From positions 6 to 64,005 of the forward strand of contig JBBIMK010000009.1 of the NCBI GenBank assembly GCA_037444445.1: DNA of 64,000 nucleotides, written 5' to 3'. Below are positions 10,943 through 34,706 of the stretch, piece by piece (the stretch's first letter is position 1; each line of letters starts with the position of its first letter). Made by a program: the position numbers and the translations under genes. The stretch comes from a bacterium (GTDB lineage Bacteria > UBP7 > UBA6624 > JBBIMK01). Below the pieces are notes generated by a model, which had not been told where the DNA came from, searched no databases, and was given only the letters and a program-made list of their open reading frames with translations.

Positions 10943-11890
10943 ATGCCCTACTCGGAGATGAAAATTCGGTTCAAGGACAATGAGGAAGCGGTGGAACTTC
11001 TGGGCGCTGGCGATGAAAACATCCGCTGGTGGGAGGAAGTCTTTGATGTTCGCTTCCGCCTGAAAGGAGATGAACTGATGATTTCCGGAGAGAAAACGGA
11101 TGTTCAAAAAGTGGGCGAAGCCCTCAAGCGCGCCCTGAAAGATGTTCAGACCGTCCCTTACGAGAACCGGCGGGCTTATTTACTTCGTGCCTTCCAGTCC
11201 CCGCCAGAGGGCAAAGTCCTCAGTATCACAGCCAGCGGAAAGCCCATCAAACCCTTGAGCGAGGGGCAAAGAATCTATGTGGAGCAAATCCTCACCAGCG
11301 ATATTACCCTCTGCATCGGACCGGCGGGCACCGGCAAAACCTTCCTCGCTGTAGCCTGCGGCGTGAACTTCCTGAAGGAAGGAAGGGTGGAACGAATCAT
11401 CCTTACCCGCCCTGCTGTGGAAGCAGGAGAATCCCTCGGCTTCCTCCCCGGAGATATGATTCAAAAAATCAATCCCTACCTCCGCCCGCTGTATGATGCC
11501 CTCTTTGTTGTCCTCGGCTTAGAGAAAACCCGTCGGCTGATTGAGAAAGAAGTGATAGAAATCGCTCCACTGGCGTTCATGCGTGGCCGCACCCTCCGCA
11601 ATGCTTTCATCATCTTAGATGAAGCCCAGAATGTGCGAAAAATCCAGATGAAAATGTTCCTCACCCGACTGGGAGAAGATTCCCGCGCCGTCGTCACGGG
11701 CGACATCACCCAGATTGACCTTCCCACTTCCGAAGATTCCGGCTTGATTCAGGTCATAGAAATTCTGAAAGGTATTCAGGGCATTTCCATCGTCCGCTTA
11801 ACTCATAAAGATGTCATTCGGCATCCTATCGTTACACGCATCATTCAGGCTTATGAGGAGACTTCAAAAAGTGTCCGACCCTCCCAGTAA
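10943..11890 (+). CDS. phoH: PhoH-like ATPase
   Basis: Walker A GPAGTGKTFLAVA and the PhoH/YbeZ family C-terminal region. Its position upstream of the 7TM-HD gene and ybeY matches the conserved phoH-ybeY neighbourhood. Confidence 0.9.
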   Translation: MPYSEMKIRFKDNEEAVELLGAGDENIRWWEEVFDVRFRLKGDELMISGEKTDVQKVGEALKRALKDVQTVPYENRRAYLLRAFQSPPEGKVLSITASGKPIKPLSEGQRIYVEQILTSDITLCIGPAGTGKTFLAVACGVNFLKEGRVERIILTRPAVEAGESLGFLPGDMIQKINPYLRPLYDALFVVLGLEKTRRLIEKEVIEIAPLAFMRGRTLRNAFIILDEAQNVRKIQMKMFLTRLGEDSRAVVTGDITQIDLPTSEDSGLIQVIEILKGIQGISIVRLTHKDVIRHPIVTRIIQAYEETSKSVRPSQ

Positions 11891-21255: not shown

Positions 21256-22572
21256 TCAGTCTACCTCTTTTCTCTTCACGCCTTCTTTCAAGGAATGAGC
21301 GTCAACGCTGTGGATGATGTGCTCAAAATCAGGGCTCCACTGAGAAGTATGGCACTGCCGGCATTGAGTCCTGCGAGGCACGCTTACTTTCACCGAGGGA
21401 TTCAGGGTATGCGGAAGTGCAGGATTATGACAGGCTTCACATTGCACATTGATGAAGGTGGGCGTGTCTTTGATGTTCATAAACCCACCCGGTTTCCCAA
21501 ATCCCAGAGTATGGCAGGTAAGGCATTCGGGGTTATATTCATCCCGTGTGGGAATAAGAGAATTGATGGCGCGAGCGTGGCGGGAAGAAACCCACATTTC
21601 ATAGATTTTCTCGTGACAGCGCCGGCAGGAGAAAGCACCGGAATAATCTTTAGGTTTCCACCCCCGGCTTAACCCCAGGATTTCCCGCTGTTTCATATAC
21701 TCTTCCAGTAGAGGCAGAAGGGTCTTTGCATCTTCCTGCGTAGCCTTCACTGGATGCCATTTCACCTGCAGTTGGACAATGCTCCCGGCACGGATTAGCA
21801 TCACCAGCTCCGCCACCCCGAGTTGTGTCGCATTCCAGGACAGGATATGCACTTTACCGTATGATTTTGCGACGACAGGGGTATCTTTCTCCCGCATATC
21901 AGGAATGCTTCCCAGAACCAGGTCCACCTCTGGATACTGGTTGAGCCATTTCATCACATCCTTCAGCCTGCTCTCGTGAACCAAAAGGGCGAGGAGATTA
22001 CTTTCTGCTTTCAGCGTTTGCATGGCTTCTTCTAATTGTTGGGGATTTAGTGTAACATCCCCCATAGAAGGAATGCTTTTGGGGATGGCAGTAGCCACTC
22101 CGAGGACAAGTCCTCTACCAATCTCCTTTTTATAGATTCGGGGCAGGGTAGGGGATTCAATGTAAGTTCCGACAGCGGTGCACTTGCCTTCGGACAGGGA
22201 TGTCAGGATGCGGGCGCTGGTGAGAATTTCCTGCGGCCCCAGGGCGCAAACATCCACCCCTGCATCATCAAAACCCTGCCGAAATAGAGCGGCGCTCTGC
22301 TTCGCCATCACCAGGTCAGGCGGCAAAAAATTCCCCCCCTCCAGCGTAACCTGGATATTTCCCGCAGAGCGGAGCTCCTTTACTATCGCTACCTCTTTTA
22401 CCCACCCACCCCCCGAACCAGAACTCAGGATTCTTCCGTCCTCCCCATAAAGCCAGAGAAAACGAACAGTTTCTGACCTGTAAATGCTACAGGTGGAAAG
22501 GACGAAGAAAATCAGGAAATAACGGCGTCTCCACAACAGATTCACGGGCAATGTTCCATTCCTGCTACCCAT
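21256..22572 (-). CDS. Secreted multiheme c-type cytochrome (four CxxCH motifs) with a roughly 300-aa N-terminal domain of unknown function
   Basis: N-terminal signal/TM anchor. C-terminal 120 aa contain CRRCH, CLTCH, CEACH and CRQCH heme-binding motifs. Confidence 0.7.
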   Translation of the reverse strand: MGSRNGTLPVNLLWRRRYFLIFFVLSTCSIYRSETVRFLWLYGEDGRILSSGSGGGWVKEVAIVKELRSAGNIQVTLEGGNFLPPDLVMAKQSAALFRQGFDDAGVDVCALGPQEILTSARILTSLSEGKCTAVGTYIESPTLPRIYKKEIGRGLVLGVATAIPKSIPSMGDVTLNPQQLEEAMQTLKAESNLLALLVHESRLKDVMKWLNQYPEVDLVLGSIPDMREKDTPVVAKSYGKVHILSWNATQLGVAELVMLIRAGSIVQLQVKWHPVKATQEDAKTLLPLLEEYMKQREILGLSRGWKPKDYSGAFSCRRCHEKIYEMWVSSRHARAINSLIPTRDEYNPECLTCHTLGFGKPGGFMNIKDTPTFINVQCEACHNPALPHTLNPSVKVSVPRRTQCRQCHTSQWSPDFEHIIHSVDAHSLKEGVKRKEVD

Positions 22573-22616
22573 TCTCCCTGGGAGTGAAAAGATGCGGAGA
22601 ACGAAGGCTTCTTTCT

Positions 22617-22865
22617 TCAGTGTTCTATATCCTCTCGGGCTTCCCAGTAAGGGCAGTAGAAGGGATGGTCCTGAAGGAGCACCCGTCCATCAGAGTTTCT
22701 CATCACCGGCTCCATCATCGGATATTCCTCTCGCTTCCATCCTAAAAGATGGCAGGTTTCCTCTACACACAAAGTATCCTCCAGCCCTTGAACAGCATAC
22801 CCGCGCTCTTGAATCTCAAAATGTCTGCAGTTGATGCAGTGCTGAAGGATGGGTTTCATACCCAT
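22617..22865 (-). CDS. Small cysteine-rich protein (possible metal-binding), translationally coupled to the FBP aldolase/phosphatase gene
   Basis: 82 aa with Cys at CxxC (CINC), CVEETC, CPY. Its ATG overlaps the upstream TGA (TGATGG). Function unknown. Confidence 0.4.
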   Translation of the reverse strand: MGMKPILQHCINCRHFEIQERGYAVQGLEDTLCVEETCHLLGWKREEYPMMEPVMRNSDGRVLLQDHPFYCPYWEAREDIEH

Positions 22866-23965
22866 CAGGATTCTTTCTGAAACCGGTCCTTCAGCCTTTC
22901 AATAATTTGTGGGATGGTGGTGTATTCCATATTGGGAAGGGAAAGGCGGTGGGGTTCAAAAGGTCCATGAAGGCGCATATAAGAGGCAATTTCACCGGCA
23001 AAATAGCGGGAATTGTCAAAGGCAGGGTCGTCAAACAGGTCCACAGGACCCACCAGTTGCCCATTCGCCAGTTGAAATCCTGCAGAAATCACCCGGGGAG
23101 GTCCGTCAAATCGGCTGGTCTGGGCTTCCCGAAAGGGCACGGGGAAAAGGGGTCCAAAGTGGCTCCCCCGATTCCACCCTTCCACCAGATGAGGGAAGGC
23201 AAAGGCTTCCAGGATTTCCCCCACAGCAGGCAACCCGGCTTGCGCCCGAACTATCAGAACCGGGTCATCCTTCCCTACATACTTCCCCGCTATCAAAGCA
23301 AGTTTCTGCGTGGAGGCAGAGGCGCAAACCATTCCACCTCTGGTGAATACCTTCCGGACAAGATACCGCTCCACTGCTCCAATCAATGCCAGCAAATCAT
23401 ACATCTCTTCCGGGCAGTTGAGGCGAATGCTCTGATTTTCTTCTATATCCAGGATTTCAAACTGGAAGCCATCGTGCATTTTGGGGTCAATCACCAGGCC
23501 AGCGGTGCAGAAAGGGTCGGCAAACATACGATATACAGGAAGATTCCAGGCGCCCGGTGAACATTTATCCCCCATAAAAATCACCACCGGCTCTGATGGG
23601 CGTTCCTCTATTTCCATCTCCGCTACCCCCGGTCCTAAACCTTTCACATTCCCGCTGAAGGCATCTTTCAGAAGGTCCTGCCCTGCCCCATACAACTTCA
23701 ACTCCTTCGCCACCTCCGTGCATCCGACAAAAGTATCCCAGGCGATTTTGTGAATCTGCTCGCTATTTTCACCCATTTTATGAGTGAGAATCAATTCCAG
23801 GTCATCCCCGCAGGACATCACACAAAAATCAACAAGAACCCCTTTTTCCTTGTGAGCCTGAAGTTGCTCCTCAGCGGTGTCAATCAGGTCTTCGTGGATA
23901 TGCGAGTGCCCCACATACCCCCCCACATCTGCTTTAATCACACTCAGCGTTATTTTTTCAGCCAT
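22865..23965 (-). CDS. fbp: Bifunctional fructose-1,6-bisphosphate aldolase/phosphatase (archaeal-type, class V FBPase)
   Basis: N-terminus MAEKITLSVIKADVGGYVGHSHIHEDL matches the hallmark FBPA/P N-terminus, with family-wide similarity over about 366 aa. The internal ATG at 23965 was chosen; AAGGAGGG Shine-Dalgarno lies 7 nt upstream. Confidence 0.88.
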   Translation of the reverse strand: MAEKITLSVIKADVGGYVGHSHIHEDLIDTAEEQLQAHKEKGVLVDFCVMSCGDDLELILTHKMGENSEQIHKIAWDTFVGCTEVAKELKLYGAGQDLLKDAFSGNVKGLGPGVAEMEIEERPSEPVVIFMGDKCSPGAWNLPVYRMFADPFCTAGLVIDPKMHDGFQFEILDIEENQSIRLNCPEEMYDLLALIGAVERYLVRKVFTRGGMVCASASTQKLALIAGKYVGKDDPVLIVRAQAGLPAVGEILEAFAFPHLVEGWNRGSHFGPLFPVPFREAQTSRFDGPPRVISAGFQLANGQLVGPVDLFDDPAFDNSRYFAGEIASYMRLHGPFEPHRLSLPNMEYTTIPQIIERLKDRFQKES

Positions 23966-24497
23966 CCGGCATCCCTCCTTTCGTTCTTCGTCCATACTCA
24001 TTATAACAAATTGTGGATGAGCGTTCGCAGTAACCCGCCCGAGATTTTTCCTCACTCTATGAAATGAAACTTTATCCCGACCCACTCGTGATTCCTGAAA
24101 CCAGGTATGTCATTTTCTGATTATTCCTATTGTCTACTTCCTGAATTTCGTGGTTGAGGATATTCCTCACCTCCTTTCCATAAGAGGAATGGAAGAATAC
24201 GCACGAGGGATTTTACCTGACCATTTGACTTTGGAATAATTTTGTAGTCATATTATCGTGCTCATGCTATGAGATTTGATAAGGGAAAGAGGAAGCCTTT
24301 TATGACAATGAGGGGGCAGGGAGAAAGTGGTAGGGTGCCGGGTTTTATCTCCTCCTTATGCCTTTGCTTTTCTATATCTACCCCCCCCCGTATAATCGCC
24401 TTTTCAACCCTTTCTGCTGGCTCATCCCTAAAATTCCTCTCTTTTTGGGAACTTTCTGGCAAAAAAGGAAGTCCACTTTATCAGGAGGTGGTAAAAT

Positions 24498-26918
24498 ATG
24501 AAGCGAGGGAAGGTGGGAATTCTGCTGAAGGCAATCTGGGGCGCCTTCCTGTTGTATGCACTTTTTTCCTGCGGCGGAGGGGGTTCCGCTACTACACCTG
24601 CGCCTGCGGCCCGAAGCCAGAAAATAATAGTGCCGTTTTCGGCGGGAAGAGGTGGTTTGCCGAGCAGCTCCCATAGAACTGCAATGACGAACCCGGCTGA
24701 GAATGCGACAGATACAACCAGCTCATCCCTGCCTCCAGCGACCCTGACACAGGAAGGTTTGCTGGAAGGACCGCCGGATTGGCGAGTCAACGAGCATCTT
24801 CCCTCTGTCCCGTTCCCGGAGTCGTTTCTCTGGGAGTTTGTGGATTCCCGGGGCCGCGCTTTCACGGAAACCGGCAGGGCTCACATAAATGTGCGGGAGT
24901 TCGGGCTTGTCCTCAGGGACTCCACGACACTGTTTCAATTGTCAGAACTGCTTCACCTCACGGATGCGTCCATATTGGGCGCAAGCCCAAAGATGAAGAT
25001 GCTTTTTGTGCGCCTCAAACAGCGACGGAATCTGGACGAATATCTCGCCTTGCTGAATCGTTTAGAAGAAGACCCCCGAGTGGAGAGGGTGATTCCGCAA
25101 GTGACTGTGTACAAAGCCTCAGCGCTCGTTCCTACTGATGAAGCAGACTGGCGCTGGGAAGTCAGTCCAGGTGGAGGCAACTGGAATTTTGAGGCAGTAA
25201 GAGTGCCCCAGGCATGGAGCCTTATGGGCTGGATTTACAGGAGACAGAATCTGGTCACCGGGGGCATCGTAGACGAGGGTTTTTTCCTTCACCCAGACCT
25301 CTCAATGAACCATGAGGAATTGAACGGTGCCAATCCAAGACTTGACAATCATCATGGAACCGGAGTTGCTGGAGTGTGGGCTGCCCTATGGGGCTCCACC
25401 GTGCAACAGAGATGGCTGGACGGAGTGCTACCGAACTCTATTCTGACCCTGTGGGGTTTAACGGGGCGAAATGTGCCGCCCCGCGGACCCGGTGACCCTC
25501 GCTGGCCCCCTCCCTGCGACATTTTCGGGCCCCAGGATGACTACGGCAAACAGTGTCTCTTCTGGCTCCAATTGTTAGATGACCTTTTCTCACAGAACAA
25601 GTTTCTGGACCTGCACCCGGAAATCAGCGTCCTGAATCTCAGCATCGGATATGGGTGTTTGTTCGCAGGCGATGCGGCGGATCCTCCCGGTAACCCTCCT
25701 GACGAGCGAGCCCGTCAAATCGCTGAGATGCTGGGCAGGGATTTTGCGCACCACTTCCAGAGCCGGGCAGACACTCTTCTACTGTTCCAGGCTGCTATGA
25801 ACTGCTACCTGAGGCGCCTGGATGAAGCCGAGGACGATGCCCGCTGGAATTCTCCCTCCTGCTATGCGTCCATAGTGGGCGACCCCACCTCCAATCCCCC
25901 TGTGCCACCCCAACAAAACATCATCTGCGTGGAAGCCACGAAGAACGCGGCGGGTTATCCGCTCGCCGGTTTCTCCAATGTGAGCGGGCAACTCTCCGCC
26001 CCGGGAAATAGCGTCACAGTATTGCTTGGAGTAGATGAAACAGCCGGGACTTCCGGCACATCCTATGCCAGCCCGCTATCCGCCGGTGCGGCATCCCTTC
26101 TGAAGTCATTCCGTCCGAGCCTGACGGTGACGCAGATTCGTCAGGCGCTTCTGACCTATTCCCGCTCCACGCCGGCAAACCAGCCTGAACCTCGGCGCGC
26201 ACCGATGCTGGATGCCTTCTACGCTCTCACCGGGCTGGACCTGATGGCAGGAAATACCGATGTCCAGAGGGAACTGGTGGATGCGGATGATGGGACGGTG
26301 GACGGGAACCTGCGGATGAGGGTATTCACCAGCGACCCGAACCCGGATGATGTTCACGCCATCCCGCCCGGAGGAACAACCCCAGACCACCGACGCGGGG
26401 ACGGGTATGTGACCCCACGCGATTTCCGCACCTTCCGGGATGTCTTCCTTCAGGTTCGCTCTGTGGAGGATGCCAATCTCGCTCCGCTCATCTCTCTGGA
26501 CGGTTCTGCGACGCATTTCAAGAGGGATTTGAATATGGACGGATGTTTGAGGGCGAGGGCGGATGCCTGCGACCCCAGCACCAATCCCTGCGTCCCCGCC
26601 AATCCCCCACACCCGGTGGACATCCCTACTCCCACCAACTGCTCGGCAGAAACCGGCGCTCCGGTGGAGAATGTCTATCCCCGGTATGATTTCAACGGGG
26701 ATGGGAGAATCACGGCTAATGCGGTCAATCCCGCCTCCGGCGATGTGGCGCCGTTCAAGATTGACCCGGACACCCACTGCACCGGGCTCAACCAGCCTGC
26801 CGGATGTCTGCGGGATATAGATGTGATGGCGCAGGTGTGGGATGCCTCTTCCTGCGAGCTTCCCGCCGGAGAATCAGCCGGTTGCCCGTCAGCACTATAT
26901 AGAGAATGTGGGCAATGA
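24498..26918 (+). CDS. Subtilisin-like (S8) serine peptidase lipoprotein with C-terminal Ca-binding dockerin/EF-hand-like repeats
   Basis: GGAGGTG RBS, then a signal peptide with lipobox LFSC. S8 triad motifs are present: Asp region GGIVDEG, His HHGTGVAG, Ser GTSYASPLSAG. Downstream are D-x-D/N-x-D-G loops (YDFNGDGRI, DLNMDGCLRA). Confidence 0.75.
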   Translation: MKRGKVGILLKAIWGAFLLYALFSCGGGGSATTPAPAARSQKIIVPFSAGRGGLPSSSHRTAMTNPAENATDTTSSSLPPATLTQEGLLEGPPDWRVNEHLPSVPFPESFLWEFVDSRGRAFTETGRAHINVREFGLVLRDSTTLFQLSELLHLTDASILGASPKMKMLFVRLKQRRNLDEYLALLNRLEEDPRVERVIPQVTVYKASALVPTDEADWRWEVSPGGGNWNFEAVRVPQAWSLMGWIYRRQNLVTGGIVDEGFFLHPDLSMNHEELNGANPRLDNHHGTGVAGVWAALWGSTVQQRWLDGVLPNSILTLWGLTGRNVPPRGPGDPRWPPPCDIFGPQDDYGKQCLFWLQLLDDLFSQNKFLDLHPEISVLNLSIGYGCLFAGDAADPPGNPPDERARQIAEMLGRDFAHHFQSRADTLLLFQAAMNCYLRRLDEAEDDARWNSPSCYASIVGDPTSNPPVPPQQNIICVEATKNAAGYPLAGFSNVSGQLSAPGNSVTVLLGVDETAGTSGTSYASPLSAGAASLLKSFRPSLTVTQIRQALLTYSRSTPANQPEPRRAPMLDAFYALTGLDLMAGNTDVQRELVDADDGTVDGNLRMRVFTSDPNPDDVHAIPPGGTTPDHRRGDGYVTPRDFRTFRDVFLQVRSVEDANLAPLISLDGSATHFKRDLNMDGCLRARADACDPSTNPCVPANPPHPVDIPTPTNCSAETGAPVENVYPRYDFNGDGRITANAVNPASGDVAPFKIDPDTHCTGLNQPAGCLRDIDVMAQVWDASSCELPAGESAGCPSALYRECGQ

Positions 26919-27717
26919 TTCCGGGGACGAAAACAATGACCCCTTTCAATGCGACTCCACCTGGAGGTGGCAGCCCCGCCGATACCTCCTTGCTGACCGG
27001 AACAGCGACCAGAGAATAGATTACCTGTATTCCGTGGATTTACATTTTTCGGGGGCGGCGCTTCCCTCTTCAGGAGCCCCCTCTATTCTCATCGTTGTCA
27101 AATCCCGGATGCCGGATGGGAATAGGCAGGATGATGATGGAGATGGGATGATAGATGAACCCTATGACCGTTCCTTCACCCGGCACATTCGGATTCCTGC
27201 CAGTGAGTGGGCATCCCAGCGGCTGGTGCTCACCGTTCCTATCTATTCCCTCGTCGCACAGGACCCACCGCCGCCGGACCAGTTAGGGAGAATTCGTGTA
27301 TCGGTCAAAGGGGTGAGCATCCAGCCTTCTTGCTGGGAATATTTCCCCCTTCATTACGGGCAGGATGTGGCGGTGCCGCCCCGGCAGGGCGTTGACCCCG
27401 CCACCCCCTGCCCTTCCCCTCCCACCCGGGCCATACACCTCGGGGGTCCCAACGACCGGCTGTATAAAATCCTCACCTTACCTGACGGCGGTTATCTGGC
27501 GGTGGGCGGCACCTACACAATGGCAGGTGGAACCCCACCAGATATGTGGGTTTTCCGGCTGGGAAGCGATGGCAATGTTGTGTGGGCGAAAGCCTATGGA
27601 GACCCCCATATGGGCAACATTTATTTTGGCAAACAGGATAGCGCAACGACTGCCGCAATTATCCTTCAGGTTCCCTACAGACTCCAGCAAGCCTCTATAA
27701 TAGCCAGAAGCCAATAG
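26827..27717 (+). CDS. Probable frameshifted continuation of the S8 peptidase (Ca-binding repeat / beta-rich C-terminal domains), or a separate overlapping ORF
   Basis: Frame +1 relative to the peptidase. The first stop-free codon is at 26827, right after an in-frame TGA at 26824. It overlaps the peptidase ORF by about 90 nt and has no signal peptide of its own. It carries the same kind of acidic Ca-loop motifs (NDSGDENND, ADRNSDQRIDYL). Confidence 0.4.
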   Translation, partial: WRRCGMPLPASFPPENQPVARQHYIENVGNDSGDENNDPFQCDSTWRWQPRRYLLADRNSDQRIDYLYSVDLHFSGAALPSSGAPSILIVVKSRMPDGNRQDDDGDGMIDEPYDRSFTRHIRIPASEWASQRLVLTVPIYSLVAQDPPPPDQLGRIRVSVKGVSIQPSCWEYFPLHYGQDVAVPPRQGVDPATPCPSPPTRAIHLGGPNDRLYKILTLPDGGYLAVGGTYTMAGGTPPDMWVFRLGSDGNVVWAKAYGDPHMGNIYFGKQDSATTAAIILQVPYRLQQASIIARSQ

Positions 27718-27845
27718 CGATTGGCGAATGGCAGATTCAGAAACAGTGAGATTTTGCAGGCAACACAAGAGTGCAAACCGTCTCTGCACGCCCCTGCCTG
27801 ATATTCGTTTGATTCGTTGAATCCTGCGACCTTTGCTCCGAGCGA

Positions 27846-28451
27846 TTAAGGGTAATACTTGACCCGAACCCCTGCGAGGTAAGTGTCCACTATCGTTTTG
27901 GTTTTCAGGCTATTCGTCCGATAAACATAATATAACTGGTCTTTGATGTAAGGTTTAATACGCTCAAAAGTGAGTTCCGACGGCTTTAATCCGTAGGTCT
28001 TCATCAGAGTTTGGTTCCATACCTCTTTATTTTCCTCATAATATCTGCGAACCTCCTCATCCGTGGGCTCCAGCAGGGAACGAAAGAGAGCGTCTTTGAG
28101 CAATTGATTCCGGATATACTGGCGATAATCTTCGTCCGTTAAACCCCTTTCTTTCAGCCATTGCTGGTAGTGCTGGAGGTTCTGGAAGCGTTCCGAGATG
28201 TCTCGCGACAGGGCTTTATCCACCGTGGAATCCGAAACGCTGAAGCCCCGGGCGACCGCGGCGCGAACCAGGACAAAATCCTGCACATATTCGTCCAGAA
28301 ACCGCTGGAATGATGGGTCCTTTACCAGGTCCTCGGTTAGTATAGGAACCTCGTTAATCCACAGTATTGGACGGGCAGTGGGCCCACGGCACGAACCCCA
28401 TAAAACAAAAAAGGCTATGACCCCCAGCGGTTTCAAAACCCTCATTTTCAT
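27846..28451 (-). CDS. Periplasmic SurA-N-terminal-domain-like chaperone (no PPIase domain)
   Basis: Signal peptide, then a helical region resembling the SurA/PpiD N-terminal chaperone domain. Overlaps the upstream stop by 4 nt. Confidence 0.5.
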   Translation of the reverse strand: MKMRVLKPLGVIAFFVLWGSCRGPTARPILWINEVPILTEDLVKDPSFQRFLDEYVQDFVLVRAAVARGFSVSDSTVDKALSRDISERFQNLQHYQQWLKERGLTDEDYRQYIRNQLLKDALFRSLLEPTDEEVRRYYEENKEVWNQTLMKTYGLKPSELTFERIKPYIKDQLYYVYRTNSLKTKTIVDTYLAGVRVKYYP

Positions 28452-31279
28452 TTCTCCTCTCCCTCCTTAGAAATCGGGATAACCCCGGCATCCAGCCAGG
28501 GACTCCAGAAAAGTAAAAGACTGCCCCGCTCCATTGATGTCCCGCGATATGAAATTCTCATTCTTCTTTCCCCTTTTACTTCCTCCAGCCAGAGCACCAC
28601 CTCATTTCTCCCAATTTCCATGCCCTCCTCCGGGGTAAGACCTGTAATTCCATAAAATTCTACTCCTGTTGCATGGCGGATGTGAACACATAGAAAAGGG
28701 AGTGGCGCTCTTGGAACGAGGGAAAGGAAAAGAGAAGAGCCATTCACATCTGATTGAAATTCCGTTCTGACCTCCAGCAAAGAAGGAGAAAGGGAAGTGC
28801 AGGAGGCTGAGGTAGGCTTGCCCAGATGTCTATCGCGAAGGGCTTCCTCAGGAAACAGAGTGCACCGCACAGGAGGCTTTCCCTCTATCACGGGCTGAAC
28901 CACAGAGCGGAGATAATCACTCATAGGGAAATTCGCAGGAAGCAGTGGAAGAGGAGAAATTTCAGAGGCTTTCTTCAGGAGAAAATGGAATGGGAAAGCC
29001 GATGGAAGAATAGAGAAAGTTTTCATTCCAGGGGGTCGCAGAAGAGAAAAAACAGCGGTGGCAAACGGACTGTAAGCGGTAGGTTCTTCCGGCAGGAAGG
29101 CACCGGCTTTCGCTACCACGCCCTCATCCACTGCCTGCCCTTTCTCCTGCAGCGCTCTTAAAGCCAGTAGCGCCCATGCGGTGGCCTCTACATTTCCCTT
29201 CTTCATCGTTCGCAAAAAATGAAACCCCCCGTCCGACTGTTGAAACCGATAAAGCCAGCGGAGCAGGATAGAGTCGGAAAATTCCCTATCCGGGAGGAAG
29301 GAACGGGTGAGCAAATTCAGAAACGAAAAATCTTCAGAGCCTGCAGAAGCCGTAGAGACTTCCGCAATAGATTGAGAAAACAGGAGCGGTTTCCCTTCCA
29401 CTGAAAAGGCCCGGATGGTAATCGGCCAGGATGGGTCAACAGAATTCATCGGGAGAACCCTCTGGAATGAGGTTCTTTCGCCCTTCCGCAGGTCCACCCG
29501 CACCGGCACATCGCTACGAACCACCAGAGTGGGGTCTGAAACTGTGGAGGGTAAAAAATCCGCCTCCAGCCTTTTCTCCTGAGTATCAGCGATGGAAGAT
29601 AGGCGAACCTGAGTATAAATGCCCTCAGGAACCTGTAAAATTCGCGATGTGAATGCGTAAGAACCCCCCGCAGGCTCAATCAGGCTCAACCGATAATAGC
29701 CCGGCGAAGGTGGTAGCGAGATCCGTGTTTTCTCATCACCTGAAATCGGCTGAAGCAAAAATGCTGATGACAGTCCAGAGGATGAAAAGACAAAGGTGGA
29801 GTGCTTTTCCACTCTCAGGGTGGAAAGAGGAAGGGGAGGTGGAGTTCCCCCAAGGAACTCCGTCAGGCGGAAGGAAGGAGGAGTCAGTAAAAGCCATCCC
29901 TCTTCTACCTCCGGATGCTGAACCGTTAGCAGGGCTCCACCCAGAAGCACCTCCTCGGTCTGATAAGTCAAAGTCGGTGGCGGAATATTCGCCACCGGCA
30001 CGAAGGTCTGTTGAACCTGCAATCGGCCAGATTCCACCCATTCCTCACTCATCCAGAAGCCCGGTGCATAGGCTTCCGCAAGGGGCAGACGAACCTCCTG
30101 CCCCGGCTTGAAAATGCGAATGCCATCAGGCAAATAAAAATAAATCGTCTTGAAATCTGAAGGAGGCAAACTGTAAACCCCTCCGCTATTCAGGGAAGAA
30201 TCTTCCTCTCCGGTGAACTTCCAGAAATACTCCTCTCCATCTCCTTCAAGCCAGACAAAAGAATAGGGGCTGGATACAGTGGATAAGGGGGGTGCAAGAG
30301 TTATTTTCCCCGAAGTCCGGGAGTCAAAAATTCGGGTGGACGAAATCCATTCCTTTTCTCCATCTTTTATTCCATACACCGCAACCTGAAAAGGCCGGGG
30401 TGCACGGGGAAAGTAACTCAATCCCTCGCCGTCCGAGGTTAACGGTGGAAGTAGAAGAAATCGGGAGGGCTGGATGATTTCCACCCTGTAAGGCTCCCTC
30501 CCATACCCCTCCAGTTGCACTTCAATTTCTTCATCAAAAGGCTGGGGAAGGTGAAAAAACTGGAGTAAGGAAGAAACGGGAGAAAAGTAGAACAATCTCC
30601 GGGAAGAATCAAAAATCCTGAAAGAGCGGTGCTCTCCACCCCGCAGGAGTAAAGAAACTGCCCTCTCATCAACGGTATAGACCCCATCCGGAGAAACGCC
30701 CTCAGGAGCCGATGGAATTTCTATCGGAAGTTCATCTATGTCTTGCCCTTTCTGAACCCTGAGGATAGAGCCTGCGGGAACCATATCCAGTGAAACTTTT
30801 CCGCCTCCATCCGTTAGCCCGAATAGAAGTTTTTCCTGCTGGAAGAAGAGAGAAAAGGACACACTTCCCACCGGTTTTCCTGTTCTTCGCTCCACCACTT
30901 CCAGATAGAAATATCGCCCTGTTGGGTGGAGTATCATAGATAGGGAAGTAATCAAAAATGTCCGAACCGCTTCGCAGGCGCCGGATTGGAAAATTGTGCG
31001 ATAATATCCTCGTTCCAGGGGCTTCTTCAGCGGTCCCGGGAAGGGCCCGGAATAGAGAGACTCAAATCCTCCCTCATCCTCCAGAAATTCTCCCTCCCAT
31101 TTTTCTACTTGAATCGTGAACGGTGGAGGGCAGGGAGGTTCACCCAGGGAAATCGTTTCACCGGGTGAAAAACGCCAGAGAGATGAAGCAGGGGTGGAAA
31201 CAGAAGCCACAGAACCTGCCATTAGAACCGCTAACCACCAGAGTGGAATTCGTGAAATTGAAAATGGGAGGGGTGTCAA
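28448..31279 (-). CDS. Large secreted alpha-2-macroglobulin-like / prenyltransferase-squalene-oxidase-repeat (alpha/alpha-toroid) protein
   Basis: 943 aa with a signal peptide. N-terminal beta-rich modules. C-terminal region has the QxxDGGF repeat (LLRWLYRFQQSDGGFHFLRTMKKGNVEATAWALLALRA) characteristic of the A2M thioester domain and of terpenoid-cyclase-like toroids. No CxEQ thioester motif was found. Confidence 0.45.
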   Translation of the reverse strand: MTPLPFSISRIPLWWLAVLMAGSVASVSTPASSLWRFSPGETISLGEPPCPPPFTIQVEKWEGEFLEDEGGFESLYSGPFPGPLKKPLERGYYRTIFQSGACEAVRTFLITSLSMILHPTGRYFYLEVVERRTGKPVGSVSFSLFFQQEKLLFGLTDGGGKVSLDMVPAGSILRVQKGQDIDELPIEIPSAPEGVSPDGVYTVDERAVSLLLRGGEHRSFRIFDSSRRLFYFSPVSSLLQFFHLPQPFDEEIEVQLEGYGREPYRVEIIQPSRFLLLPPLTSDGEGLSYFPRAPRPFQVAVYGIKDGEKEWISSTRIFDSRTSGKITLAPPLSTVSSPYSFVWLEGDGEEYFWKFTGEEDSSLNSGGVYSLPPSDFKTIYFYLPDGIRIFKPGQEVRLPLAEAYAPGFWMSEEWVESGRLQVQQTFVPVANIPPPTLTYQTEEVLLGGALLTVQHPEVEEGWLLLTPPSFRLTEFLGGTPPPLPLSTLRVEKHSTFVFSSSGLSSAFLLQPISGDEKTRISLPPSPGYYRLSLIEPAGGSYAFTSRILQVPEGIYTQVRLSSIADTQEKRLEADFLPSTVSDPTLVVRSDVPVRVDLRKGERTSFQRVLPMNSVDPSWPITIRAFSVEGKPLLFSQSIAEVSTASAGSEDFSFLNLLTRSFLPDREFSDSILLRWLYRFQQSDGGFHFLRTMKKGNVEATAWALLALRALQEKGQAVDEGVVAKAGAFLPEEPTAYSPFATAVFSLLRPPGMKTFSILPSAFPFHFLLKKASEISPLPLLPANFPMSDYLRSVVQPVIEGKPPVRCTLFPEEALRDRHLGKPTSASCTSLSPSLLEVRTEFQSDVNGSSLFLSLVPRAPLPFLCVHIRHATGVEFYGITGLTPEEGMEIGRNEVVLWLEEVKGERRMRISYRGTSMERGSLLLFWSPWLDAGVIPISKEGEEK

Positions 31280-32457
31280 ATACTCCCGACCATGGCATCA
31301 TCCGGCCGGTCAAACGGATAGACTTCAATTTCCGTCTTTTTCGCTTCCCGCAGAACCTGAAGTTTTAACTTATCATCCGGTCCTAACTGTCGGATGTTCA
31401 GCGCCAGGTCTCGTGGACTTTTATACAGGATTTCCTCGGTCACCAATTGGCCAGCGGGGGATTGGCGCGTGAACTTGGCGCCCAGGATAATGTCACCCAC
31501 CCGAAGCCCACGCTTGGCCGCAGGTCCTTTGAGATCCACAGTATCCACGATAATTCCTGCATCCTTCTCTATCCATTCTTCAGGCATACCGGCGAAAATC
31601 CGAAGGAGTTTCGTGGTGGGTGAAGCGATGACCCCAAACCAGGGGTGATAGATTTTCCGTCCCGCAATTAAATCAAAAGCATACTGCCGAAGGTCATTGG
31701 AAGGGAATACAATGTTCAAATTCTGCACTTCCCGCACCAGTTCTGTGGGAATGATAGTGGATTGCTCCACTGCCAGGGCATTGATGCCCAGCACCTCACC
31801 TCGCATATTCGCCAGCGGTCCTCCCAGATTGTATAGGTAAAAGCGAGCATCCGTCTGAATCACCTTCGGAACGAAGTAATCCCAGTTCATGTAGTAATCC
31901 CGAACGGAACTAATGACACCCACGGATGCGGCTACCGTTTCCCCCAGCGGATATCCGAGAGCCAGCACGGTTTCTCCCGCTTGAACTGCGGAGGAATCTC
32001 CGAAGGTAACAGCGGGGAAAGGACCCGGGCCCAGAATCTGGATGATGGCGAGGTTATTCCAGCGGTCATAATTCGCCAGACGGGCGGGCAGAATCCGCCC
32101 GTCGTGGAGGCGAACCTGCATTTCCTTCGCCCCCTTCACCTGTGTATACAGCGTAACCGCATACCCCTCGGGTGATACGATGAATCCTGAAGTTCCACCC
32201 TGGGCTATCAGACGCTGGAAGGAGCGACGAAACACGGGCGACTGATATAATGTCGTCACCACTTCCACAGACACCACCGCCGGCGCTACCTTCTCCACTG
32301 CTTCCACGAAGGCAAAACTTCCAGGGTCAAACACATAGGTGGGAGTCATTGCAGAGCAAAAAAGCAACAGGCTTACTCCCACCACCCAGAAGATGGAACT
32401 CTTCTTCCCCCGGCTATCCATCTTTTCACCCCTTTCCCGCCATTGGCTCCCAGCCAT
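31276..32457 (-). CDS. HtrA/DegP-family pseudo-protease with PDZ domain (catalytic triad replaced)
   Basis: Trypsin-fold + PDZ architecture. The His box reads VTLYTQV (no His). The Asp box reads NNLAIIQI (Asp to Asn). The Ser box reads YNLGGPL instead of GNSGGPL (Ser to Leu). Confidence 0.7.
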   Translation of the reverse strand: MAGSQWRERGEKMDSRGKKSSIFWVVGVSLLLFCSAMTPTYVFDPGSFAFVEAVEKVAPAVVSVEVVTTLYQSPVFRRSFQRLIAQGGTSGFIVSPEGYAVTLYTQVKGAKEMQVRLHDGRILPARLANYDRWNNLAIIQILGPGPFPAVTFGDSSAVQAGETVLALGYPLGETVAASVGVISSVRDYYMNWDYFVPKVIQTDARFYLYNLGGPLANMRGEVLGINALAVEQSTIIPTELVREVQNLNIVFPSNDLRQYAFDLIAGRKIYHPWFGVIASPTTKLLRIFAGMPEEWIEKDAGIIVDTVDLKGPAAKRGLRVGDIILGAKFTRQSPAGQLVTEEILYKSPRDLALNIRQLGPDDKLKLQVLREAKKTEIEVYPFDRPDDAMVGSI

Positions 32458-32466
32458 TTCTTTGCC

Positions 32467-33669
32467 TCAAACGGTTCCCCCGGCGCCCGCAGGGGGCTGG
32501 GGCTGCTCTTCTATCCGCAAAGTCACCAGTCGGAACACACCGCCCCGCCGAATGAAAAATTCCACCGAGTCCCCCACTGACATACTCCGAATCATCTTCC
32601 GAAGTTCAAAGGCATCTTTGTATACTTTCCCGTTAACGGAGTAAATCACATCCCCGGCGGCAAGCCCCGCCTGCTCCGCCGGCGAGCCCGGAAAAACCCC
32701 CTTGATTTTTACCGGATATTTCATTCCCTTGTAAAATTCATCTAATCTCAGAATCTCTTCCTTGATATAACGCTGAATATCCTGCTGTGGATTAAACCCC
32801 TGCTCTACACCGGGCCAGCCACCGATATAAGTAGGATTCCTCTCCTGAGGGGTCCAGAAGATGAAGAGCCCTGCCCACGGGTAAATCACCCGCCCGTATT
32901 TTAAGATGTCTTCCGCACTCTTCTTCGCATCGTTGATGGGGTAGAAAAGATTTTGTGCCTCCATCGCACTGGAACCCCAGGAGTTAATCCCAATCTGCTC
33001 GCCCCGGGCATTAAAAGTGGCTCCCCCGCTGTTACCGGCATTGATGGTGGCCGTGGATTGAATTATCCAGGTGAGTTCCTTACCATAGTCCGGATTATTG
33101 AAAACATCCTCCGCACTCATCAGCGGAAATGGATATTCAAAATCCTTCACAATACCCACCGTTACAGTGTTCACCAGCTGGAACTCTTTGAGCCGGAATC
33201 CCGGGTTGAATTGCTCAATCATAAATCCTAAGGAGGCATCGCCGGGAGAGCCAATGGCGAAAACCAGGTCATTTTTCTGAATCTTCTCAGAATCCGCCAG
33301 GTCTACATACGGGAAGACTCTGGGTTCCGGGGTGATGATTTTCACCAGGCCGAAATCCACCTTCACATTAGTGCCCACCACTTTCCCGGGAAGCACCTCC
33401 CCATTATCCAGAGTAATATCTACGAGTTTAGCGGAGGTGACCACATGCCAGTTGGTGTAGATATAGCCATCCGGCGAGACGATGGAGCCGCTTCCTCCAC
33501 CCCCCCCTGCTCCACCGGGGCTCCGATGTAACACCCGAACCATGGCAGGCTTCACTTTCGCCACCACCGGCGTCAGGTCCATCGTCGCTATCCCTTCCGC
33601 TCCCTGCTCCTCCGTTGCTTCCAGCGACAGCACCATAAAAGAAAGCAAAAGGATAGAAAGTTTTTTCAT
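32467..33669 (-). CDS. htrA: HtrA/DegP-family serine endoprotease with PDZ domain (catalytically intact)
   Basis: Signal peptide MKKLSILLLSF. His box YTNWHVV, Asp box VDFGLVKI, Ser box GNSGGATF, C-terminal PDZ. The ATG at 33669 overlaps the upstream stop (ATGA). Confidence 0.8.
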   Translation of the reverse strand: MKKLSILLLSFMVLSLEATEEQGAEGIATMDLTPVVAKVKPAMVRVLHRSPGGAGGGGGSGSIVSPDGYIYTNWHVVTSAKLVDITLDNGEVLPGKVVGTNVKVDFGLVKIITPEPRVFPYVDLADSEKIQKNDLVFAIGSPGDASLGFMIEQFNPGFRLKEFQLVNTVTVGIVKDFEYPFPLMSAEDVFNNPDYGKELTWIIQSTATINAGNSGGATFNARGEQIGINSWGSSAMEAQNLFYPINDAKKSAEDILKYGRVIYPWAGLFIFWTPQERNPTYIGGWPGVEQGFNPQQDIQRYIKEEILRLDEFYKGMKYPVKIKGVFPGSPAEQAGLAAGDVIYSVNGKVYKDAFELRKMIRSMSVGDSVEFFIRRGGVFRLVTLRIEEQPQPPAGAGGTV

Positions 33670-34706
33670 CTTTTCATCCCTCCTTTCCACTCGGCGATGG
33701 TCACATCTCGCTCAAGGATGCGGCCATCCCGCCAGATTTTCACTGAAAAAGTATCCCCGATATTCAACTGATTCACAGGAATCCAGAAGTCCTGAGGCAG
33801 GGTAAGAGATTTCCCCCCCAGTTCCAGCAGGAAATCGTTGGCACGAATCCCCGCTTTATCGGCTGGACTCCCCTCATCTACGAAAGTAACAAATAGTCCA
33901 TAATCATACGGGTATCCGTAGCGGGTTCGCTGGGTGTCATCCACCACCAGCAAAGATACCCCGGTCCAGGGGCGGGCGAATCGCCCCTTCTCCACTATCT
34001 CCTTCACCACTCTCCGCACCGTATTCACCGGAATGGCAAAGTGCAAGTATAATTCCTTATATTGCTGACGCAGGAAAGTAAGAACCCCCACCACTTCTCC
34101 TCGGAAATTCAAAAGAGGTCCCCCCTGCATTCCGTAGGAAATAGGGGCATCCGTTTGAATAAAGGTAGTCACTCCACCTTCCGCCCAGGGTCCCGCGGTG
34201 GGCAGTGCAGAAAGTATCCCGAAAGAAGGTGTGAACAGCCCATTTGAACTCACACCGACGGCAATCAGAGGCTCACCCACTCTCGGTGATTCGTTCTCGG
34301 GCAGGAAAGGAACCGCGGTCAGTTTCTCCGCCCGGATGCGAACCACTGCCACATCCGTCGGCTCATCCATTCCCAACAGCACCCCCTCATAACTTTTCCC
34401 ATCTGAAAGAATCACCTGGATATAACGGGCATACTTCAAGGTTTGAGCCGTCGTGAGTATATATCCCTTTTTGTCATCAAAAATGAATCCAGAGCCTACT
34501 TCCGTAAGGGTTGCGTCACCCAGAATCCCTCGCTTACGCTCTAAAAAACGAACCTTCACCTGCACCAGAGCCGGTAACACTCCGTTGGAAATATCATTCA
34601 TCCGCTGGGCATAAGGATGTATTTCCCGGGGCACGGTGGTGCCGAAAAGGAACACCATACAGACCCCCCCCACCAGTCCAGCCATTTTCAGCCTGAGTCC
34701 TTTCAC
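33666..34706 (-). CDS. HtrA/DegP-family pseudo-protease with PDZ domain (His and Ser replaced)
   Basis: The His box reads LTTAQTL (His to Gln). The Asp box PTDVAVVRI is retained. The Ser box reads GMQGGPL (Ser to Gln). Signal peptide and PDZ domain are present. Confidence 0.7.
   Translation of the reverse strand: MKGLRLKMAGLVGGVCMVFLFGTTVPREIHPYAQRMNDISNGVLPALVQVKVRFLERKRGILGDATLTEVGSGFIFDDKKGYILTTAQTLKYARYIQVILSDGKSYEGVLLGMDEPTDVAVVRIRAEKLTAVPFLPENESPRVGEPLIAVGVSSNGLFTPSFGILSALPTAGPWAEGGVTTFIQTDAPISYGMQGGPLLNFRGEVVGVLTFLRQQYKELYLHFAIPVNTVRRVVKEIVEKGRFARPWTGVSLLVVDDTQRTRYGYPYDYGLFVTFVDEGSPADKAGIRANDFLLELGGKSLTLPQDFWIPVNQLNIGDTFSVKIWRDGRILERDVTIAEWKGGMKR

Follow-up and report, generated by a model that had tools for sequence, protein, structure and literature searches.

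Two open reading frames (ORFs) overlap on the forward strand at positions 24498-27717 of the window, a stretch of 64,000 nucleotides (nt) from contig JBBIMK010000009.1 of a UBP7 bacterium, and their arrangement raises the question of whether they are two genes or a single gene with a broken reading frame. ORF1 (24498..26918, 806 amino acids [aa]) encodes a peptidase of family S8, and ORF2 (26842..27717, 291 aa) is read in the +1 frame if that of ORF1 is taken as frame 0. In the public annotation the locus holds two separate proteins, one of 806 aa (P0002) and one of 269 aa (P0001) that is called from a GTG start at 26908. A first inspection of the letters alone, hereafter the sequence-only reading, had proposed that the second ORF holds the C-terminus of the peptidase, displaced by a frameshift. 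We find that this is so: 24498-27717 is one S8 peptidase gene, because homologues carry both parts in one polypeptide and a DNA alignment traces the break to one surplus base in the window.

Stops at 26818 and 26824 close the +1 frame, which is open from 26827 on, and the stop codon of ORF1 is at 26916-26918. Both frames are open over 92 nt (77 nt if counted from the ATG of ORF2), which bears out the earlier estimate of an overlap of about 90 nt, in different frames, at 26824-26918. The fused protein had been put at about 1090 aa; the repaired product of ORF1 and ORF2 comes to 1072 aa when computed. Direct reading of ORF2 agrees that it has no signal peptide.

Evidence for a single gene comes from homologous proteins. 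An indexed (word-index) search returned only itself for ORF2 and one true homologue for ORF1, P0003, a 1073-aa protein from a JGI metagenome (locus L001) that is encoded by one continuous ORF. P0003 aligns with residues 17-783 of ORF1 at 43% identity, and its residues 912-1070 match the ORF2 frame at 48% identity (E=2e-45); residues ~10-197 of ORF2 are the normal C-terminus of ORF1. An HMMER search of 1.84 billion representative proteins, with a profile (A3) built from P0003, ORF1, and ORF2, gave 2772 hits at E<=1e-3, of which 227 reached E<=1e-30. Among the hits are many proteins of 900-1500 aa with a single match that spans the junction, extending from the catalytic domain to where the ORF2-type domain ends, as in P0006 (483-1083), P0008 (487-1054), and P0016 (571-1082). 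By local hidden Markov model (HMM) search, the ORF2-type domain occurs in 50 of the 152 best representatives. In 49 of 49 other than P0001 it starts at residue 189 at the earliest, after the S8 and calcium (Ca)-loop region of the same polypeptide; P0001, from the window itself, is alone in having it at the N-terminus. About a dozen members have their C-terminus within 0-2 residues of this domain, and in other members RTX repeats, DUF7453, or propeller-like repeats follow. Relatives with two genes and the same overlap were searched for, and the opposite was found.

Further evidence comes from DNA. Used as a query, the fused-protein alignment retrieved no related loci from genome contigs or metagenome contigs. 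Three related loci were reached from homologous proteins (L001, L002, and L003) and one by DNA pattern search (L084, the sole find for an exact degenerate pattern in metagenome contigs). L003 is a Logan contig from run SRR11582170 and shares the gene order of the window (cytochrome c554-like gene, FBPase_3, S8 gene), with nucleotide identities of 94% over 21281-25685 and 90% over 26054-26927. L002 (NCBI GCA_900175145.1) is ~75% identical to the window and has a different genomic context; L084 (FWPU01002704.1) is 96% identical to L002 and also ~75% identical to the window. L001, the locus of P0003, is a distant relative.

Compared with L003, L002, and L001, there is exactly one surplus base in the window, at 26845-26847 (alignment A5; GATGC[C]TCTTCC); it is one of C, C, and T in GATGCCTCTTCC. 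The window reads GTGTGGGATGCCTCTTCCTGCGAGC where L002 has GTCTGGGATG-CTCTTCCTTCTTCC, L001 has GTCTGGGATG-CCCTGCCTGCCGTT, and L003 has GTGTGGGAAG-GGCTTCCTGCGAGC; at the junction L084 has the same in-frame sequence as L002. The repaired, one-base-fewer versions of the site are GATGCTCTTCC or GATGCCCTTCC. With one base removed, the window encodes ...VMAQVWDA-LPASFPPENQPVARQHYIEN... (WDA-LPASFPPENQ). The corresponding sequences are WEG-LPASLPPENQPVARQH in L003 (WEG-LPASLPPENQ), WDA-LPSSLPPESQPVLRQH in L002 and L084 (WDA-LPSSLPPESQ), and WDA-LPAVPP...QKVAKQH in P0003, and the four relatives have in common, in one frame, the pattern WDA/WEG-LPxS..PPE.QPV..RQH. The repaired frame would give the junction peptide ...VWDALPASFPPENQPVAR, and the truncated product the frame-0 tail peptide ...VWDASSCELPAGESAGCPSALYRECGQ.

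The lesion lies in a variable linker between the CLRDIDVMAQVWDA motif (conserved as CLRDIDV(M/L)A) and the C-terminal β-sandwich domain (alignment A6). The site is not a homopolymer, the longest run being CC or TT. Across the out-of-frame tail of ORF1 (SSCELPAGESAGCPSALYRECGQ plus stop, 26847..26918), relatives match the +1 frame and not frame 0, and none of the relatives has anything corresponding to the last 23 codons of ORF1. The exact site of the lesion and the absence of a shift in relatives are established by these alignments, and we regard it as highly probable that one gene has been split by a nonprogrammed 1-nt insertion relative to its relatives.

This raises a second question, whether the extra base is in the organism or in the assembly. 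We favor a genuine recent mutation, by which a gene under relaxed selection in the clade is becoming a pseudogene or has been truncated, with a probability of roughly 0.6 that covers the full statement, including that the mutation is genuine. Anything other than a real mutation or an assembly or consensus error is very improbable.

The related loci carry lesions of their own. L003 has a deletion of 368 nt corresponding to window 25686-26053 (L003 5290-5330), which is not a multiple of three and breaks the frame; it is flanked by the imperfect 11-nt repeats CGGCGGATCCT and CGGCACATCCT (CGGCnnATCCT) and removes residues ~397-519 of the catalytic domain. The match to L002 passes through frames 2, 3, 1, and 3, and the locus also contains an in-frame TAG stop (between DSDL and HWQPR). 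The 1-nt deletion of L002 is also found in L084 (AAAATCAC-GCC), a separate assembly record, and such lesions are therefore heritable in that lineage. A further 11-nt deletion about 100 nt upstream restores the frame in L084 (L084 reverse complement 180-330; L002 6650-6790), and 42 codons are out of frame, including the family-invariant ENVYPRYDFNGDG loop (YPRYDFNGDG). L084 is without the in-frame TAG of L002, and its ORF ends about 12 residues past the C-terminal domain, with no propeller. On these contigs the neighboring genes are called full length.

The ratio of nonsynonymous to synonymous substitution rates (dN/dS) between the window and L003 is 0.31 for residues 1-396 and 0.22 for residues 520-783; for neighboring genes it is 0.23 (cytochrome gene), 0.11, and 0.07. 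For most of the time since the two diverged, the gene was thus constrained by purifying selection, and any inactivation must be recent. The locus resembles frameshift-disrupted genes and incipient pseudogenes in that a single-base insertion or deletion (indel) gives two overlapping ORFs, of which the downstream part has no export signal, and in that the gene is intact in relatives and has independent deletion, frameshift, and nonsense lesions in sister lineages. It differs from them in that the upstream product has the whole catalytic domain and that a dN/dS of 0.2-0.3 marks the decay as recent.

The alternative that survives best is a sequencing, assembly, or consensus error (polishing or strain mixing in a metagenome-assembled consensus), with an intact gene of ~1072 aa in the organism; we consider it rather unlikely. 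Several points speak for an error or weigh against a genuine mutation. The dN/dS of 0.22-0.31 shows that the gene was functional until recently, and low values also fit a functional gene combined with an assembly error. A single 1-nt indel alone separates the two frames. P0001 and P0002 each form a 90% cluster of one member from one contig, the window contig has no twin in the collections, and the base has no independent confirmation there. The position of the extra base outside a long homopolymer opposes a typical sequencing error and is no positive evidence for a mutation. Because its catalytic domain is complete, the predicted 806-aa product may still be active, and to call the gene a "pseudogene" may go too far. 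Compared with its orthologues the gene does have a broken frame; a pseudogene would further require that the indel be in the genome, and it would take reads to tell such an indel from one of the assembly or consensus.

Set against an error are the lack of a homopolymer run at the site and the lack of other frameshift candidates in the ORF pairs checked across 64 kb. Decay also has precedent in the clade, given the real and different lesions in the same gene at four related loci, one of them in two assembly records, and the truncated 3' propeller part of the window copy is unexplained by an indel error. Overlapping long ORF pairs were considered as a sign of an error-prone assembly, and this idea was dropped: the other overlapping or adjacent long ORF pairs that we checked in the window are distinct, intact genes, with no split genes among them. 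Pfam families are covered end to end elsewhere in the window (FBPase_3, 1-361/361; PhoH, 2-205/205; tRNA-synt_2c, 2-551/552; AAA_3, 1-131/131).

A different possibility is recurrent, selected loss or remodeling of a surface protease, for example to escape its cost or a phage or predator that targets it, rather than neutral decay. Independent hits are present in every examined member of this small uncultured clade, dN/dS is 0.2-0.3, and this combination could reflect selected loss; we regard such an explanation as doubtful.

The sequence-only reading had also offered programmed +1 frameshifting. Ribosomal frameshifting of the prfB type, or transcriptional slippage, would produce the full 1072-aa protein, and a shift anywhere in the 92 nt that are doubly open would yield the fusion. 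At 26862-26865 there is a CCC-G codon context, of a kind in principle liable to +1 slippage (a tendency that belongs to tRNA-Pro), and an AGGTG lies upstream of the site at 26833-26837. However, the junction is in a single frame in L003, L002, L084, and L001, including the closest of the relatives, the 90-94%-identical L003, and programmed frameshifting is rejected. Homology in the +1 frame begins at 26848 (LPAS.PP), so a shift would be needed at GCC-U or UCU-U, where tRNA re-pairing is impossible. The codons at the site (GCC-U and UCU-U, then UCC and UGC) include no rare codon, and there is no in-frame stop until 23 codons on. A shift at CCC-G, which would bring SSCELP alongside DCSALPE of P0003, was considered and dropped because +1-frame homology to L003 and L002 starts at 26848.

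The remaining features of the site are no more favorable to recoding. The AGGTG is conserved coding sequence for Q-V-W, and its distance to the site is 6 nt instead of the 3 nt seen in prfB. No run of A or T that could support transcriptional slippage is present, the RNA fold of the 120 nt downstream is no better than that of shuffles (z=-0.15), and an Rfam search gave no relevant family, only two chance-level small nucleolar RNA hits. In prfB, the gene for release factor 2, the downstream part is also in the +1 frame after a short overlap of open frames. That gene has a CUU-UGA-type slippery codon plus stop and a Shine-Dalgarno (SD)-like element 3 nt upstream; both are missing here, the shift is not conserved in relatives, and it would have no regulatory logic. 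The case has no bearing on recoding biology and is an ordinary phenomenon.

Least probable, to the point of being negligible, is a locus of two distinct genes, one for a shorter S8 peptidase and one for an independent protein of 269-291 aa with its own start: the NCBI-derived annotation calls P0002 and P0001 separately and the SD-like AGGTG is 4 nt ahead of the ATG at 26842, but none of the 152 representatives except the window's own starts with an ORF2-type domain, the same two-gene arrangement and overlap was not found in those representatives or in the four related loci, ORF2 has no signal peptide though its domain belongs to an exported protein in homologues, the +1 frame is already homologous to relatives from 26848 on, upstream of the called starts, and the final 23 codons of ORF1 are unmatched. 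A promoter and terminator scan did no better than shuffles; the minus strand has a terminator-like hairpin at 27789-27771.

Regarding the nature of the protein, we propose a single gene for a secreted, probably lipid-anchored S8 serine peptidase that would consist, in order, of a signal with lipobox, a prodomain-like region, the catalytic domain, a Ca-loop module of ~220 aa, a β-sandwich of ~190 aa, and a propeller remnant, all encoded on the plus strand. ORF1 is a member of peptidase family S8, as the sequence-only reading had recognized, by its profile match, the order Asp-His-Ser, and an oxyanion-hole Asn. The match to Pfam Peptidase_S8 (PF00082; E=4.9e-14, 52.8 bits, cut-off 21.8) covers residues 256-555 (25263..26162) and profile positions 7-273 of 288. 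The motifs IVDEG (D259), HGTGVAG (H286), N435, and GTSYASP (S522) are invariant in the alignment with P0003. Residues 474-552 align to 173-251 of subtilisin BPN', which places S522 on the catalytic Ser221; the Asp and His of the triad were assigned by motif only.

The N-terminus of ORF1 (24498..24572) is plausibly a lipoprotein signal. It reads MKRGK, a hydrophobic stretch, and L-F-S-C25, in which Phe at -2 is noncanonical for the lipobox [LVI][ASTVI][GAS]C, followed by GG. C25-G26-G27 is invariant in P0003, and the Cys-Gly-Gly is also kept in P0005, P0006, and L002, with the same N-terminus in L003/P0005 and L002. The Pfam scan of the window protein gave no prodomain hit. Homologues have weak to moderate Fervidolysin_NPro-like prodomain hits, the one in P0024 reaching 24.8 bits (cut-off 21). 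Multidomain S8 subtilases of the fervidolysin type, with an N-terminal prodomain and a C-terminal β-sandwich, thus share with this family the Asp-His-Ser S8 domain, the prodomain-like hits of homologues, and a predicted β-sandwich after the catalytic domain. Unlike in those enzymes, neither the ~220-aa Ca-loop module nor the ~190-aa C-terminal domain has a counterpart among Pfam families or solved structures, and the window protein is without a prodomain hit.

The post-catalytic module of ~220 aa (26193..26846), the final portion of the gene to remain in frame 0, has the acidic motifs DxDDGTxDGN, RRGDGxV..DFRxFRD, DLNxDGC, YPRYDFNGDG, and CLRDIDVMA. Local HMM searches detect it in 148 of the 152 best representatives of the family, and the family consensus (P0003-P0152) is LVDVDDGTxDGNLR...RRGDGxIxMxDFRAFRD...HFKKDLNFDGC...YPRYDFNGDG...CLRDIDVLAD; DFNGDG and DLNxDG are invariant or nearly so (alignment A7). 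The module has no Pfam family at threshold and matched no solved structure. The sequence-only reading had described loops like those of dockerins or EF-hands. The loops themselves are real and conserved in the family, with 12-residue D-x-N/D-x-D-G-x-I segments (YDFNGDGRI, DLNMDGC, DR(N/D)xDxRIDY) like those of type I dockerins and EF-hands, but the likeness holds at the level of the motif only. In the window module both Dockerin_1 (14.5 bits, cut-off 22.9) and EF-hand_5 (16.4 bits, cut-off 25.9) fall below threshold; similarly weak EF-hand or Dockerin hits occur in 7-8 of 18 family members, the best (E=3e-4) still under the cut-offs. Searched as a profile against the PDB, the module matches EF-hand proteins over about 25 residues only (best E=3e-4), a likeness that amounts to one 12-residue loop. 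The paired-repeat architecture of type I dockerins (PF00404) is not evident.

The C-terminal β-sandwich domain occupies the first ~197 residues of ORF2 in the +1 frame (26848..27438), on the evidence of homology to P0003, alignment A6, and an AlphaFold2 model. Its motifs include W.WQPR.YLLADR.xD.RIDYLYS.DLHF, LTVP, and YGQD. The DR(D/N)xDxxIDY loop is kept in alignment A6, and a DDDGDGxIDEP insertion is found in a subset of members that includes the window. In the AlphaFold2 model of repaired ORF2, residues ~11-178 form the β-sandwich with a predicted local distance difference test score (pLDDT) of 66-92. The domain has no Pfam match and no solved structure; the best Foldseek hit in the PDB has E=0.025 and a template modeling score of ~0.25. 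The kexin/furin P-domain may be named as a functional analogy for it. We infer that the Ca-loop module and the β-sandwich could be Ca2+-stabilized accessory or substrate-binding domains of the exported protease.

Downstream of this domain, a linker, about one propeller-like blade, a nonhomologous tail, and the stop occupy 27439..27717. The sequence-only reading had noted beta-propeller-like sequence here; it is real, and it is short. It is a truncated remnant, of about one blade, of a module of roughly 450 aa that is seen in relatives, rather than a propeller. Only 27487-27606 matches the propeller-like 451-aa ORF that adjoins P0003 (48% identity over 40 aa, E=6e-6 within the window), and no propeller sequence was found beyond 27606 by tblastn at E<=10. 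After the C-terminal domain the window frame continues into a homologue of the N-terminus of the 451-aa ORF and then into the nonhomologous tail and stop; the region is collinear with P0006, in which the C-terminal domain and the repeats share one ORF. ORF2 has no Pfam match, and near its end only there is a weak hit to the delta-60 repeat (TIGR02608; E=0.0034, 17.2 bits, cut-off 76.5, one repeat). In the AlphaFold2 model the blade remnant has a pLDDT of ~55, and the last 39 residues (251-289) are below 50.

At L001 11190-11290 (JGI 3300062571, Ga0598072_000172), P0003 ends at a TAG at 11220-11222, and the next ORF, the propeller-like one of 451 aa without a signal peptide, is in the same frame and is called from a GTG at 11250. 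In tblastn with the repaired protein of the window, the alignment runs through this TAG, and coding is uninterrupted at the equivalent junction in P0006 and the window. An ancestral protein of ~1500 aa may thus be divided at the TAG, either by a nonsense mutation or by a read-through site.

If the extra nucleotide at 26845-26847 is in the organism, it would throw the last ~290 codons into the +1 frame. Translation of ORF1 would end 23 out-of-frame codons later and give an exported protease of 806 aa that keeps its catalytic triad and has lost the C-terminal domain. Should ORF2 be translated at all, its product would remain cytoplasmic for want of an export signal and would most likely be useless. 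For users of the public record, the two coding sequences (806 aa and 269 aa) are best treated as one frameshifted S8 peptidase gene, and ORF2 is no orphan family. The gene belongs to a large, unannotated family of multidomain subtilases (900-1500 aa, at least 227 representatives below E=1e-30) with two conserved post-catalytic regions that lack a Pfam family or structure. These regions could merit family definition; nothing mechanistically new is implied.

The GC content of the S8 locus (24500-27700) is 0.57-0.61, versus ~0.50 in both flanks, an excess that is compatible with past horizontal acquisition. The region of the L001 contig that holds the distant intact homologue has a GC content of 0.58.

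On the upstream side of the locus, window 21256-24085 (minus strand) encodes a 438-aa protein with C-terminal multiheme motifs (Cytochrome_C554 and C7 hits) that adjoins an archaeal-type fructose 1,6-bisphosphate aldolase/phosphatase (FBPase_3, E=2.5e-177). The latter is only ~70% identical to its best matches in species-representative genomes, mostly metagenome-assembled genomes of Nitrospirota/Thermodesulfovibrionia, and the lineage is therefore without a close species-representative genome. On the downstream side, a spacer of 128 nt (27718..27845), in which tblastn finds no more propeller sequence, separates the gene from a convergent, envelope quality-control-like cluster at 27846-34706 on the minus strand. 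The cluster consists of a SurA_N-like protein of 201 aa (27846-28451), a 943-aa protein without a Pfam match (28448-31279), and three tandem HtrA/DegP-like genes with Trypsin_2 and PDZ domains (31276-32457, 32467-33690, and 33666-34706).

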